Positions 12,548 through 16,619 of a stretch of 32,000 nt of DNA are shown one piece after another (within the stretch, counting starts at the first letter, position 1; each line of letters opens with the position of its first letter). The position numbers were made by a program, and so were the translations under genes. The DNA comes from an archaeon. GTDB taxonomy: Archaea; Asgardarchaeota; Thorarchaeia; Thorarchaeales; Thorarchaeaceae. The stretch lies in NCBI GenBank assembly GCA_024275415.1, contig JAJRZD010000039.1, positions 1 to 32,000 of the forward strand, in the 5' to 3' direction. The notes beneath the pieces are model-generated. The model had not been told where the DNA came from. It did not search any database and saw only the letters and a list, made by a program, of their open reading frames with translations.

Positions 12548-14563
12548 ATGAAAAGGAGCCGATTCCACGTAGGTCTGTCAGCAGTTTTCATCTTGGCAAT
12601 CCTCTGTATCCCATCAGCGGATGTCGTAGGCTACAATGTTGCATCTAAGAACCTATCAGCAGAACCTGTGAAACAGATGGCTCCTAGTGCTACATTCTCA
12701 CTGGAGAGTCTATGGGATGGTATCTATGCCAAGACCAGTGAAAGTAGCGCACAGGATCTTGTAAGGCTGCTCTCGACAAATTACGAGCATCGTGTGTGGT
12801 ACCCCCTTGACAAGGATGGCTCATATCCGCTGAAAGGTGCCTGGGAATGGATGAATGATACCCTCAAAAGTGTCACAGGAAACGAGCTGGAGTTCCACTT
12901 TATGACCGAGTACCTCAATCTGGTTGCAATCAAAAAGGGAACTGAACCAAACCTTGACCCGATACTCATAGTGGGAACCGCATCAAGTCATTATATCTCC
13001 GGACCTGCTGCCAATGCATTTGGTTCCACAGTTGCTGCAGTTATCGAATCAGCCCGGATTCTGAACCAATATAATCTCACGAATGACGTGTATTTCGTTC
13101 TCGTAAACACTATTTCTTACGGTTCCTTCACCTATGACTTGGGAAATCAGGGCTTGCACAACCTCATCCTAGATCTTGAGGAAGAGGGAAAGACCCCTGC
13201 AGCCGTCTTCTGGTTCAATAGATTGTTATATTCAGACGCATCAGAAACATCAGGCGATGCCATAAGAATTGATTGGGACTACCTCCAACCTGTCTACGAT
13301 CAGGTAAGGTATCTTACTGATATTGCGCAGAAAGTTGCTGCGATGTCTGGAACGAAAGATGTCCTGATTACAAACCGCTCTTCAAGTACGAGATTCTGGT
13401 ATGCAACCGGAGGGTACGAGGGATGGCGTAATGACATTCCAAGCCTCACTATCGGACAGGCATATGACGACTCTGTTTGGTACTCGGATGAAGATAGATG
13501 GAACTACTGGGCTTATGATTATGAAAAACTTGCGAATGCAATAGGACTCGTTTCGTCACTCGTAGCCACGTTAGGGTCATTCGGATATGGAGATGCGCCA
13601 GAGATATCGCGTACTCTCTCAATCCCAGCAGGTTACAAACTGAACGATTCTATGTCACTGACAGGAGAGTCCTACCTCAATGTGAGTGTGACTTGGGACA
13701 AGAACATTTCCGTGAGTGCGGAGATATTTGACCCTGCGATGGACTCTGTCTATTTCAGGAATGAGAGCGATAGAACAATAAACATGAGCTATCTTGTCAC
13801 GACAAAGGGACGCCATTACCTTCGGTTGACAAACTATGGCAATGAGTCCATCACCATCACATACACATACTCACAGTTCCAAGACTTCGACTGGGATCTG
13901 CTTGATGACCATACTGAATTTCTCTTCGGAACCGATAGCCTATCAAAAGATACGGATGTAGATTTGCTTGGAGACTATGACGAGTATATCATAGGAACAG
14001 ACCCACGGGTTCAAGATACAGATCTCGATGGTGCAATGGATGGTGTCGAGATAATCTACGGAAGCAATCCTCTAGTGTCCGATTCTGATGGTGATACGCT
14101 TCTCGATGGGTTTGAGATTGATAATGGCTACAGTCCTATCTCCAACGACACTGACAGCGATACACTGAATGATGCATACGAACTCTCGATAGGGACAGAC
14201 CCTGCGTCGAATGATACAGACCGTGACGGGCTCGACGACGCCTACGAGATAACTATAGGAACCAACCCACTTTCACCGGATTCTGACCAGGATGGGCTGA
14301 GTGACCTTTTCGAGGTACTCAATGCCCTCAATCCAAACTCGGTCGATTCAGATAATGACGGCCTGACCGATGCATATGAGATTGAGCAATGCCTCATGCC
14401 TTTCGATCCTGACACGGACAGGGACGGCATCATCGACGGACTGGACTGGGCCCCGCGTGACCACTGGATAACTATCATTCCACCCATCGCGGTAGGAGTG
14501 TTCTTTCTGGGACTCATCGGGGTAATGATTTCCAAGCGGAGAGAGTACATGAGAGGTGCATAG
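12548..14563 (+). CDS. Surface protein: degenerate M28-peptidase fold, beta-sandwich-like segment, DxDxD repeat stalk, C-terminal TM (paralog 1)
   Basis: Signal peptide from ATG 12548. NLVAIKKG...ILIVGT...[11 protein letters not shown]...DVYFV matches the M28 scaffold without its Zn ligands. Eight 22-aa DxDxDxxxDxxE repeats plus a terminal partial one. TM anchor [19 protein letters not shown]. Confidence 0.8.
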
Positions 14564-14633
14564 AATGTCAAGAAACGGTTATCGCGGAAAGGGATGGATA
14601 CACAAACATGGTGTGTCATGGCATCGGCATGCA

Positions 14634-16619
14634 ATGTCCAACAAGATACGTCCAGTGTTTGTCGGACTGATGCTAACTATTATTGGAATGTCTGTCATCG
14701 TCCCAAGTGGCGGGTATGCATTAGATGTGAAAGAACCAGTTCGGATTGCATCCATATCAGACCTTACCTATTTCAATGCCACAGACCTCTTCACAAGTAT
14801 ACGGGCAGATACATCCATCAACAACATCGGGAATTACACGAAAGACCTCTCGGAGCAGTTCCCGAACAGGACATATGACGAAGAACAAGGCCCTTCTGAG
14901 AACCTTGTTGGTGCATGGCAATGGGCGAATGCCACCCTAAAATCAATCACTGGAGGGAATATGGCATTCTCACAGGTGACAGACTATCAGCACCTTATTT
15001 CCATCAAGAAGGGCACAGCCCCCGCACCAAGACCAGTACTCGTGCTTACAGGGACAATCGACTCGGAACTCACGCCAGGGGCCAATGACGCAGCAGTCAC
15101 TGTGGCGGTAATCCTAGAGATTGCACGGTTGTTGAGTTCGTACGAGTTAGCCTATGATGTGTACTTTGTCCTCACGAATGGAGGACACCTTGACAAGGAC
15201 ATAGACTACGGAGGGAGGGCATTCGTCCAGTGGGTGCTTGACAATGGGATACAATCGTTCACAACCATCTCATTTGACAGGCTTTTGTTCGAGCGCTCAG
15301 GATACCTTTACGCATACAAAATCAACATCCGCTCCTTCTCATCTACAGATAACTATCATGACGCACAGTGGATTCCTGACTTAATGGTTCAGGTGTCATC
15401 GATATACGGCAATGGCTACTTTCAGTGGGTTCCTGATTACGATGTAGCAGAGCGATCCAGTGCATACGAGATGTGGTTAGTGGGCCGCCCAGGGTTGTAT
15501 GTCACGCAGGGCTATTGGAAGGACCCACACTCCAACTCAGAGGATGATGTCTGGGACAACCCCGACTTCTCACTTGAGAAGGCAAAAGAGGCTGCATCGG
15601 TCACAGCATCTGTGGTCGCATACATGGGACTTCTCGGACAGGGCGCAGCACCACAGCGATATCTCGGGGGTCGGCTCAATTCCACAGAGTATGACCTGAT
15701 GGGAGTCACTGCTTCGTTGACGGGATACCTCAACGGCACGTTGACATGGGATAGTGGGAACATGATGCAGGTCAGCATCATGGACGCCGAAACCAGAGAG
15801 GTCGTGTACCAAAGGACAGAAGATGATGGTATGATGGTTCTGAAGTATCTCGTCCTTGACTTGGGAGGGTACATCTTTAATGTGACTAACATCGGCTCGT
15901 CATCTACCAATTTCACACTGACCGTTACCACTCACGAAGACATGGATGGCGATGGCATCAAGGATTTCGAAGAGATCGAGATTGGAACCTCGCCATACAT
16001 GCGAGACTCAGACCTGGACATGCTGTCGGATGACTTTGAGCTCTCGATAGGCTCAGACCCCACCAGTCAAGACTCCGATGGGGACGGTGCATCTGACTAT
16101 GACGAGTACTTGTGGGGTTCAAGCCCTCTTTCCAATGACACTGATGCAGATCTCATCAGCGATGCGGTAGAAGCAGAACTCGGCACCAACCCGACCTCGC
16201 CTGATTCTGATCAAGATGGTCTCGATGACTACCTAGAGGTCTATGTGCTCCACAGCAACCCGTTGAGTTCAGACACTGACCTTGACGGTCTCGAAGACGG
16301 ATTCGAGTATGAAGTAGGTCTCAATCTGCTCTCTCCGGACACTGATGGCGATTCACTAAGTGATCTTTTCGAGATCCTGAACAACATCTCTCCGTTCACT
16401 GCGGATACAGACGGCGATGGCTGGAGCGATGCATATGAGATAGAAAACTGTATGCTCCCAAACTCGATTGACACGGACGGCGATGGGATTTCGGATACAT
16501 ACGACTGGGATCCGCAGGAACACTGGATAACAGTGGTATCACCAGTCGTTTTAGTGTCAGTGATAATGCTACTCATCAGCTATTCGTTCCTCAAGATGCG
16601 TGTCTACAAAAGAATGTAG
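14634..16619 (+). CDS. Surface protein with the same architecture (paralog 2)
   Basis: Signal peptide from ATG 14634 (the ORF track begins at 14556). GTIDS...PGANDAAVTVAVILEIARLL...DVYFVLTNGG. Eight 22-23-aa DxDxD repeats plus a partial one; C-terminal TM. Confidence 0.82.
   Translation: MSNKIRPVFVGLMLTIIGMSVIVPSGGYALDVKEPVRIASISDLTYFNATDLFTSIRADTSINNIGNYTKDLSEQFPNRTYDEEQGPSENLVGAWQWANATLKSITGGNMAFSQVTDYQHLISIKKGTAPAPRPVLVLTGTIDSELTPGANDAAVTVAVILEIARLLSSYELAYDVYFVLTNGGHLDKDIDYGGRAFVQWVLDNGIQSFTTISFDRLLFERSGYLYAYKINIRSFSSTDNYHDAQWIPDLMVQVSSIYGNGYFQWVPDYDVAERSSAYEMWLVGRPGLYVTQGYWKDPHSNSEDDVWDNPDFSLEKAKEAASVTASVVAYMGLLGQGAAPQRYLGGRLNSTEYDLMGVTASLTGYLNGTLTWDSGNMMQVSIMDAETREVVYQRTEDDGMMVLKYLVLDLGGYIFNVTNIGSSSTNFTLTVTTHEDMDGDGIKDFEEIEIGTSPYMRDSDLDMLSDDFELSIGSDPTSQDSDGDGASDYDEYLWGSSPLSNDTDADLISDAVEAELGTNPTSPDSDQDGLDDYLEVYVLHSNPLSSDTDLDGLEDGFEYEVGLNLLSPDTDGDSLSDLFEILNNISPFTADTDGDGWSDAYEIENCMLPNSIDTDGDGISDTYDWDPQEHWITVVSPVVLVSVIMLLISYSFLKMRVYKRM

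Follow-up and report, generated by a model that had tools for sequence, protein, structure and literature searches.

Putative surface pseudopeptidases of Thorarchaeota, derived from an Asgard M28-TSP3 family and probably convergent with nicalin and nicastrin

Introduction

Do two adjacent genes of an Asgard archaeon encode membrane-anchored peptidases that have lost their catalytic site, and, if so, is their likeness to the eukaryotic proteins nicalin and nicastrin inherited or convergent? The genes, here called A (P0001) and B, lie at positions 12548-16619 of a 32,000-nucleotide (nt) stretch of DNA (positions 1 to 32,000 of contig JAJRZD010000039.1, assembly GCA_024275415.1; hereafter the window). 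The source assembly is a 3.5-Mb metagenome-assembled genome, 92.9% complete, in which the window is contig C16 (genome label G000). A preliminary description of the window, made from its sequence alone, had read this locus as tandem paralogs with inactive M28-type domains on acidic repeat stalks and, should the host be Asgard, as a family "related or convergent" to nicalin and nicastrin. The host is an Asgard archaeon, as judged from the close homologs of A and B, all of which are deposited as Candidatus Thorarchaeota. Both open reading frames (ORFs) are present at the coordinates given and are paralogous from end to end (36% identity, E 1e-102). The analysis presented here makes it likely that A and B are coupled surface pseudopeptidases that arose from an active Asgard family of M28 proteins with TSP3 repeats, that they act as non-catalytic binding or scaffold proteins, and that their resemblance to nicalin is convergent.

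Loss of the M28 active site

A paralog encoded on another contig of the same genome (P0013, contig C45, 641 aa) served as a control. It has the same four-part architecture as A and B, matches Pfam M28 at E 2e-30, and retains a canonical site (GAHFDSV, GANDDGSG, NDEESG, NLDML, and YHTSRD, or HDDEEDH in short). Seven columns were aligned to P0013, namely His1, Asp, the bridging Asp, the catalytic Glu, Glu, Asp, and His2. At these columns A reads T-S-A-I-S-N-Y and keeps none of the seven residues; B reads T-D-D-G-H-D-N and keeps three Asp only. These are D143, D152, and D216 (B residue numbers count from the internal ATG at 14634, the 661-aa reading P0002), and they persist in most orthologs, with GAND nearly invariant. 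The motifs quoted in the preliminary description (GTASS, VNTIS, and FWFNRL in A; GTIDS, GAND, TNGGH, and FDR in B) are all present, and the asymmetric loss of the catalytic and zinc-binding set that it proposed is recovered in this alignment.

A census of the same site covered 15 A sequences, 15 B sequences, 28 sequences of an active Thorarchaeota clade (C), and 2 of a degenerate clade (D), plus 149 database representatives. Every clade A sequence (15/15) lacks all seven residues, His1 being replaced by T/S/N/V and the bridging Asp by A/G/Y/M. Within clade B, His1 is replaced by I/V/T/M, His2 is variable, and the two former Glu positions hold G/A/R/H/V/M and H/R/N/Y/L, respectively; some members have lost the Asp residues as well (P0021, V-S-Q...; L034, I-D-S...; P0029). 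In A and B alike, the two zinc-binding His and the Glu pair, one the general base and the other a ligand, have been replaced, and A has lost its Asp ligands too; the 15 A and 20 B orthologs collected from other Thorarchaeota genomes show the same losses. No replacement ligand set is conserved among the A or B orthologs in the alignment; the residues that substitute for the old site vary among orthologs, and no alternative metal site therefore appears to have taken over. That A and B are catalytically dead pseudopeptidases with a retained fold is well supported.

Fold and protein architecture

AlphaFold2 models of residues 1-440 of each protein, built with 57 family sequences, reached a predicted local distance difference test (pLDDT) of 91.8 and a predicted template modeling score (pTM) of 0.88 for B, and values of 89.8 and 0.86 for A. 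The top Foldseek matches (E ~1e-16) were Legionella LapA/LapB, the Aeromonas/Vibrio aminopeptidase, Aspergillus LapA, and Streptomyces SGAP, with glutaminyl cyclases ranking after the aminopeptidases. A second structure search, independent of Foldseek, returned Z scores of 29.2-30.8 for both models (root-mean-square deviation 2.6 Å, 260-271 residues aligned); structures matched at Z 29-31 include 1rtq, 2ek8, 5gne, and 6zeq. At the sequence level, Peptidase_M28 (PF04389) matches 50 of the 57 family members; B lies above the Pfam threshold (27 bits vs 21.3) and A below it (E 0.19). The clade B profile, searched against PDB sequences, finds 2ek8 at E 9e-7 and 6hc6 at E 2e-5, the clade A profile finds 6hc6 at E 1e-3, and in a language-model atlas the neighbors of the A domain are prokaryotic M28 clusters. 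Profiles and models together thus point to an M28 aminopeptidase fold in both proteins, as the preliminary description had supposed.

Each protein starts with a basic N-terminus and a hydrophobic signal/anchor helix. A brief disordered linker leads to an alpha/beta domain of ~300 residues, behind which come an all-beta sandwich of ~95 residues, the TSP3 repeats, and a C-terminal transmembrane helix with a short basic tail (Table 1). The stalk in each case comprises nine DxDxDGxxDxxE repeats with a period of exactly 22 residues and is strongly acidic (27-28% Asp+Glu, 1-2% Lys+Arg). Both proteins belong to the TSP3 family (PF18884) at the Pfam cut-off of 25 bits, and calcium binding is predicted from the motif. 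One family member weakly matches Pfam PPC in the beta-sandwich, and the sandwich of B shows weak profile similarity (E 0.5) to the beta-jelly-roll at the C-terminus of 3afg, a subtilisin-like protease. Sandwich and stalk together place ~290 residues between the M28 domain and the transmembrane helix. With one N-terminal hydrophobic helix and a lone C-terminal transmembrane helix followed by a basic tail, the predicted topology is type I. The acidic repeat stalks and the single-pass anchoring anticipated in the preliminary description are both recovered. The ectodomains contain 12 and 10 N-x-S/T sequons, respectively, one of which, in an AWxWANxTL helix, never varies in clade B and belongs to the consensus conserved in clade A. 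Together with the TSP3 repeats and the hydropathy, the conserved N-x-T sequons suggest a surface location for A and B, and would fit extracellular, glycosylated ectodomains.

Table 1. Features of the window discussed in the text (positions in the window; residue numbers of the respective protein)
Feature	Position	Strand	Details
Type VII (MacB/FtsX-like) ABC operon, five genes	2306..11885	-	Pfam; divergent from MobB/A/B
Two double-FtsX permeases	8177-11065 and 5261-8173	-	~965 aa each; Pfam; MacB-like periplasmic core domain
Proximal ABC ATPase	11070-11885	-	Pfam
MobB-like P-loop gene	11990..12499	+	Pfam MobB E 1e-19; directly upstream of A
Gene A (P0001)	12548..14563	+	671 aa from ATG; putative M28-fold pseudopeptidase on TSP3 stalk
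A, M28-fold alpha/beta domain	12692..13588	+	residues 49-347; model Z 30.8 to 2ek8, 30.5 to 1rtq
A, all-beta sandwich	13595..13864	+	residues 350-439; AlphaFold2 secondary structure
A, nine TSP3-type acidic repeats	13883..14446	+	residues 446-633; Pfam TSP3_bac E 7e-10, motif scan
A, C-terminal transmembrane helix, then basic tail KRREYMRGA	14462..14539	+	predicted; hydropathy maximum 2.51
A/B junction	14551..14567	+	GAGAGGTG ribosome-binding-like motif; A stop TAG 14561-14563; B ATG 14565
Gene B	14565..16619	+	684 aa from ATG 14565; putative M28-fold pseudopeptidase, three Asp kept
B, M28-fold alpha/beta domain	14769..15641	+	P0002 residues 46-336; Pfam M28 27 bits; model Z 29.2 to 1rtq
B, all-beta sandwich	15648..15932	+	residues 339-433; AlphaFold2
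B, nine TSP3-type acidic repeats	15939..16505	+	residues 436-624; Pfam TSP3_bac E 1e-14, motif scan
B, C-terminal transmembrane helix, then basic tail	16518..16604	+	predicted; hydropathy maximum 2.44

Gene layout, selection, and possible A-B fusion

Gene A has an alternative GTG start at 12539. The long open frame of B covers 14556-16619; its most likely start is the ATG at 14565, which yields the same 684 aa as the database record P0003. This ATG falls 1 nt past the TAG stop of A, and the Shine-Dalgarno-like motif GAGAGGTG (14551-14558) stands six nt before it, which suggests that the two genes are translationally coupled. No terminator-like site was found on the + strand between A and B in a sequence scan. 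A scan for sigma-70 promoters and terminators returned counts at the level of shuffled sequence, the scan model being uninformative for an archaeal host.

Ratios of nonsynonymous to synonymous substitution (dN/dS) were saturated in all ortholog pairs except one, from two genomes of genus g12. For this pair, dN/dS is 0.13 (A) and 0.12 (B) over the M28-fold domain, and 0.12 (A) and 0.17 (B) over whole genes. The low ratios, the same losses across orthologs, and ORFs that remain intact in 29 genomes of 13 genera argue that A and B are under purifying selection, as would be expected of selected pseudoenzymes rather than decaying genes.

In three assemblies, all belonging to the genus of the window, A and B occupy one open frame of 1351-1366 aa (G052, L041:3072-7139:-; G031, C305; and NCBI MDF1538913.1, P0015). 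The transmembrane helix and KRR basic tail of A are kept at the junction and are followed by the Met and hydrophobic helix of B, an arrangement that would be topologically consistent with a fusion protein of three transmembrane segments.

Distribution and evolutionary origin

At a threshold of E<=1e-22, one Thorarchaeota family carries the A/B lineage in 29 of its 59 genomes searched, which represent 13 genera; a search of 191 genomes belonging to 27 further Asgard families did not find it, and neither A nor B was detected in genera g9 or g13. An exhaustive hidden Markov model search with a profile of the A+B domain against 1.84 billion representatives returned ~20 clusters of the A/B type at E<=1e-103, among which is a 1351-aa protein with both halves. 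After a gap, a second tier of ~610-aa proteins begins at E 1e-47, followed by a generic M28 tail; this tier consists almost entirely of proteins with an HDDEEDH site, TSP3 repeats, and a C-terminal transmembrane helix, and repeat-less proteins appear only further down. Named representatives of this broader M28-TSP3 group belong to Thor-, Hod-, Odin-, and Promethearchaeota.

In an IQ-TREE phylogeny of 73 M28 domains, none of them eukaryotic, A and B together form a clade with full support (100/100), divided into A (100/99) and B (98/90). The active Thorarchaeota clade C and the degenerate clade D are each recovered at 100/100. Sister to A+B (90/93) are two degenerate T-D-D proteins, P0073 (Hodarchaeota, MFX0117509.1) and P0071, whose sites read T-D-D-E-H-D-G and T-D-D-Q-Y-G-G, respectively, and which both have the M28-TSP3 arrangement. 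Used as a query, P0073 has almost no database relatives, so that this branch is a near-singleton. An origin of the inactive lineage before Thorarchaeota is hinted at by the Hodarchaeota sister.

These data are most simply read as one duplication of an already inactive ancestor, which would have taken place within the Asgard family of membrane-anchored M28-TSP3 proteins. Inactivation would have preceded duplication, because A and B both lack His1, the Glu-Glu pair, and His2; A would then, most simply, have lost its remaining Asp residues. Genera g4 and g10 have B alone at the same position, and since these lone-B sequences nest inside clade B, A was lost secondarily in these genera, with B as the conserved core. 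Two other histories were considered and rejected: an obligate A-B pair, given that g4 and g10 carry B without A, and an origin of A from B after the split of g4 and g10, given the nested position of the lone-B sequences.

Other members of the family show separate alterations. Clade D includes P0014 (L007:1165-3216:-, G000 contig C1) and L060:955-2940:-, which have the same architecture and a site reading Y/H-D-F/Q-S/N-...; the M28 domain of P0014 is no longer detected by Pfam, and its relatives form a 16-member Thorarchaeota cluster (P0067). Genus g9 has tandem arrays of M28-TSP3-transmembrane proteins (L043, L045, L046, L048, and L049, in genomes G013, G043, G049, G012, and G024), in which an HDDEEDH active-type copy stands beside paralogs whose altered sites are conserved and read H-D-C-L-H/F-D-H/Q/Y or H-D-E-R-Y-E-R. 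In the H-D-C variants the bridging Asp is changed to Cys and the Glu-Glu pair to Leu-His/Phe; such Cys/His-rich variants could have a remodeled metal site instead of a dead one. Within the window's genome, Pfam M28 scores best at G000:C122:52521-53135 (+), at E 1e-39, in a 332-aa frame with one in-frame TAG. Several giant TSP3-packed ORFs (1607-2251 aa) occur on contigs C83 (49846-55095), C63 (71035-73428), C29 (28035-30467), and C30 (47493-49100 and 62920-63390) of the same genome. TSP3 repeats seem to be in general use as modules of Thorarchaeota surface proteins.

The nicalin and nicastrin question

Profiles of clades A and B were compared with all PDB chain sequences at E<=10, a set that includes nicalin (6w6l_5); the search returned bacterial aminopeptidases only, and neither nicalin, nicastrin, nor the transferrin receptor. 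Even the active paralog P0013 reaches nicalin no better than at E 0.53, far behind 2ek8 at 1e-16. Nicalin and nicastrin are not among the 50 best structural matches of either model (rank-50 Z 18.4 and 17.1, as compared with ~30 for aminopeptidases of the AAP type), which is not proof of dissimilarity. The same 50 matches do include TfR1 (Z 26-27), GCPII (Z 22-23), and GPAA1 (Z 19-20), all below the plain aminopeptidases. At E<=1, the Pfam Nicastrin model (PF05450) matches neither A nor B nor any other part of the genome; it matches 1 of the 57 family members, at E 0.004.

Nicalin binds a partner with seven transmembrane helices, TMEM147, and nicastrin binds APH-1, likewise a seven-helix protein; in these pairs the partner contacts the single transmembrane helix (PMC7505659). 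Searched at E<=1 against this genome, which is 92.9% complete, the models of Aph-1 and TMEM147 (PF06105, PF09767) retrieve nothing; such a search may overlook remote homologs, and the TMEM147 model gave no match in any control genome. Elsewhere in the genome and unlinked to A/B, a 292-aa frame has a weak, sub-threshold Pfam Presenilin match (G000:C42:4111-4326, - strand; E 0.006, 16 bits), and is probably an archaeal presenilin/SPP-type protease. Our literature search found nothing on nicalin in Asgard archaea, on thrombospondin repeats in Thorarchaeota, or on an archaeal link between nicastrin and M28. Nor do the papers that it found mention the Gly residues which the preliminary description had tentatively assigned to nicalin in place of the Glu-Glu pair.

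The likeness of A and B to nicalin and nicastrin is best read as convergent, not inherited. This reading follows from the placement of A+B within an Asgard M28-TSP3-transmembrane family whose other members keep HDDEEDH, from the lack of any specific affinity for nicalin or nicastrin in the profile, structure, Nicastrin, and partner-model searches, and from the restriction of the lineage to one family. Of the two possibilities that the preliminary description had left side by side, convergence is thus retained and relationship given up: profiles, the Nicastrin model, the partner models, and the Asgard tree all lend the latter no support. The description had also held that branching inside prokaryotic M28 clades would speak against a eukaryote link, and that is where A and B fall, as far as a tree of M28 domains with no eukaryotic members can show.

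The neighboring ABC operon

Divergent from A and B lies a five-gene type VII ATP-binding cassette (ABC) operon (Table 1), in which the permeases are followed by a second ATPase and then by a 654-aa alpha/beta hydrolase. The order FtsX1-FtsX2-ABC, divergent from (MobB)-(A)-B, recurs in all 19 loci compared (about 14 genera); these comprise 14 loci with both A and B together with lone-B loci, and all come from one taxonomic family. The divergent region between the operon and the A/B side is short (~105-130 nt), and the genes downstream of A/B differ between genomes. A second ATPase-like ORF lies past FtsX1 in three loci; the conserved adjacency is stated for the permeases and proximal ATPase.

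The MobB-like gene is found at the same position in 12 of the 14 pair loci. It also stays beside the transporter in genus g9, whose locus lacks A and B, and its association therefore appears to be with the transporter rather than with the pseudopeptidases. The g9 locus likewise shows the transporter to be independent of B, and an obligate dependence between the two was rejected on this ground.

Proposed function and alternative explanations

Under the explanation we favor, the two translationally coupled paralogous genes would give rise to single-pass cell-surface proteins, each with a membrane-distal dead M28 domain atop a beta-sandwich, a nine-repeat TSP3 stalk, and a C-terminal membrane anchor. 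The ectodomains would act as non-catalytic binding or scaffold modules, in the simplest mode with the vestigial substrate pocket gripping the N-termini of peptides or proteins, and the rigid, acidic, calcium-stiffened stalk would display the M28 shell above the membrane. Where both proteins exist, the stop-start coupling, co-inheritance, and one-frame fusions suggest that they work together as an A-B complex. A functional tie between B and the divergent MacB/FtsX-type operon may be supposed from the short bidirectional control region that the two share in every genome examined.

Several observations weigh against this explanation or parts of it. The backbone of the tree, i.e., the relation of A+B to clade C, is not resolved on the M28 domain alone, so that the common origin of A+B with the active family rests partly on shared architecture; moreover, the tree holds no eukaryotic sequence. 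The one-frame "fusions" may reflect mere loss of a stop codon, with B still initiating at its own Met. Since the three Asp of B persist in most, though not all, orthologs, a single cation might still bind. The ABC operon and MobB occur without adjacent A/B in genus g9, neither operon nor A/B was found in g13, and inheritance of gene order within one family could account for the adjacency.

A and B may instead be free-standing structural or adhesion proteins of the surface that have no functional tie to the transporter, a possibility that we regard as somewhat unlikely but still serious: the genome has many other TSP3-repeat surface ORFs, the giants of 1600-2250 aa included, g9 keeps transporter and MobB without A/B, and every locus compared comes from a single family in which gene order may simply have been inherited. 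Against such passive inheritance, B remains divergent from the ABC ATPase in all 19 loci even where MobB or A is missing and where the downstream genes are reshuffled, over a span in which the proteins have diverged to 35-60% identity. At the other extreme, and by analogy, B (with A where present) could be the extracytoplasmic pseudoenzyme partner of a type VII mechanotransmission ABC transporter, an archaeal counterpart of FtsEX-EnvC. Movements of the giant FtsX ectodomains, powered by ATP, would then be passed to the dead M28 domain on its calcium-stiffened stalk, and this domain could gate substrates, or present them, for the active M28 peptidases of the cell surface or for the membrane-anchored hydrolase of the operon. 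We think this scheme unlikely.

Persisting enzymatic activity and common descent with the eukaryotic scaffolds carry still less weight. That A and/or B are enzymes with a remodeled site, B for example being a one-metal hydrolase or cyclase that uses its three Asp, is suggested by the persistence of these residues together with the nearly invariant GAND, and by the high rank of single-zinc M28-fold glutaminyl cyclases among the structural matches. Glutaminyl cyclases, however, bind their metal through the bridging Asp, Glu2, and His2, two of which are gone; no His and no conserved general base are left, the former Glu positions of B vary freely, B-clade members such as P0021 and L034 have dispensed with Asp residues too, and A keeps nothing of the site. 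We therefore hold residual catalysis to be very unlikely. Lower again, and in our judgment extremely improbable, stands the proposal that A and B are specific relatives of nicalin and nicastrin, whether orthologs or a prokaryotic stem, with the eukaryotic scaffolds inherited from an Asgard ancestor. The Asgard host, an inactive M28 fold on a single C-terminal transmembrane anchor, the degenerate Hodarchaeota sister with its hint that inactivation may predate Thorarchaeota, and the weak presenilin-like match all make this proposal attractive. Yet the A/B profiles find bacterial aminopeptidases (1e-3 to 1e-6) and, even at E<=10, neither eukaryotic protein; the approach of P0013 to nicalin is slight; TfR1, GCPII, and GPAA1 enter the 50 best structural matches where nicalin and nicastrin do not; and the Nicastrin and partner models are all but silent at the thresholds given above. 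The lineage is, moreover, not found among the 191 genomes of other Asgard families, P0073 is nearly alone in the databases, and the A/B architecture differs in its beta-sandwich and TSP3 stalk. We know of no such sandwich or stalk in nicalin or nicastrin.

Comparison with known systems

The surface pseudopeptidases proposed here bear on several questions. Public records label homologs of A and B "M28 family peptidase," which overstates the proteolytic repertoire of Thorarchaeota, as A and B appear to be a conserved and selected pseudoenzyme lineage. The locus and its relatives would also document the stepwise birth of a pseudoenzyme within one genome family, from active aminopeptidase to a B-type protein with three Asp, to the stripped A-type, and on to the later loss of A or its fusion. 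As a candidate for the Asgard ancestry of nicalin and nicastrin, the pair was tempting, but it finds no support, and the position of B beside a type VII ABC operon offers a concrete, testable handle on the function of both. To our knowledge, neither A/B-type proteins nor this type VII ABC operon has been studied in archaea.

Among characterized proteins, the bacterial and fungal M28 leucyl aminopeptidases (Aeromonas/Vibrio proteolyticus AAP, 1rtq/1amp; Legionella LapA/LapB; Aneurinibacillus 2ek8; Bacillus YwaD, 6hc6; Streptomyces SGAP) share the alpha/beta fold of A and B and give the best sequence and profile matches, and their GAxD and helix motifs are still present in the window proteins. 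The latter differ in lacking the zinc ligands and catalytic Glu and in adding the sandwich, TSP3 stalk, and transmembrane helix. The nearest relatives outside the A/B clade are the Asgard HDDEEDH M28-TSP3 proteins (P0013 and others), which have the same four-part architecture but keep all seven site residues; whereas A and B hold a fixed locus beside the ABC operon, these active paralogs lie elsewhere, often in tandem arrays. Nicalin, of the BOS/multipass translocon, and nicastrin, of gamma-secretase, resemble A and B in presenting a non-catalytic M28-fold ectodomain on a C-terminal transmembrane helix; A and B are set apart by the sandwich and stalk, by a narrow phyletic range, and by the lack of a detected seven-helix partner. 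TfR1, GCPII, and GPAA1 are further membrane proteins with the M28 fold, some of them inactive, and TfR1 is likewise a non-catalytic binding protein. All three are eukaryotic proteins of type II or multi-domain build, with PA and helical domains, and draw no match from the clade profiles.

A different parallel is offered by FtsEX-EnvC, in which a type VII ABC transporter drives an inactive extracytoplasmic protein of peptidase fold. There, as in the window, a dead peptidase-fold protein is encoded beside a transporter of the FtsX/MacB type. EnvC, for its part, combines an M23/LytM fold and a coiled coil and lacks a transmembrane anchor, and the parallel with A and B is one of analogy, resting here on a conserved divergent adjacency seen in the genes, with a transporter that in g9 occurs without B. 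Set among these systems, A and B would be a lineage-restricted variant of a known theme, the non-peptidase homologues of M28.

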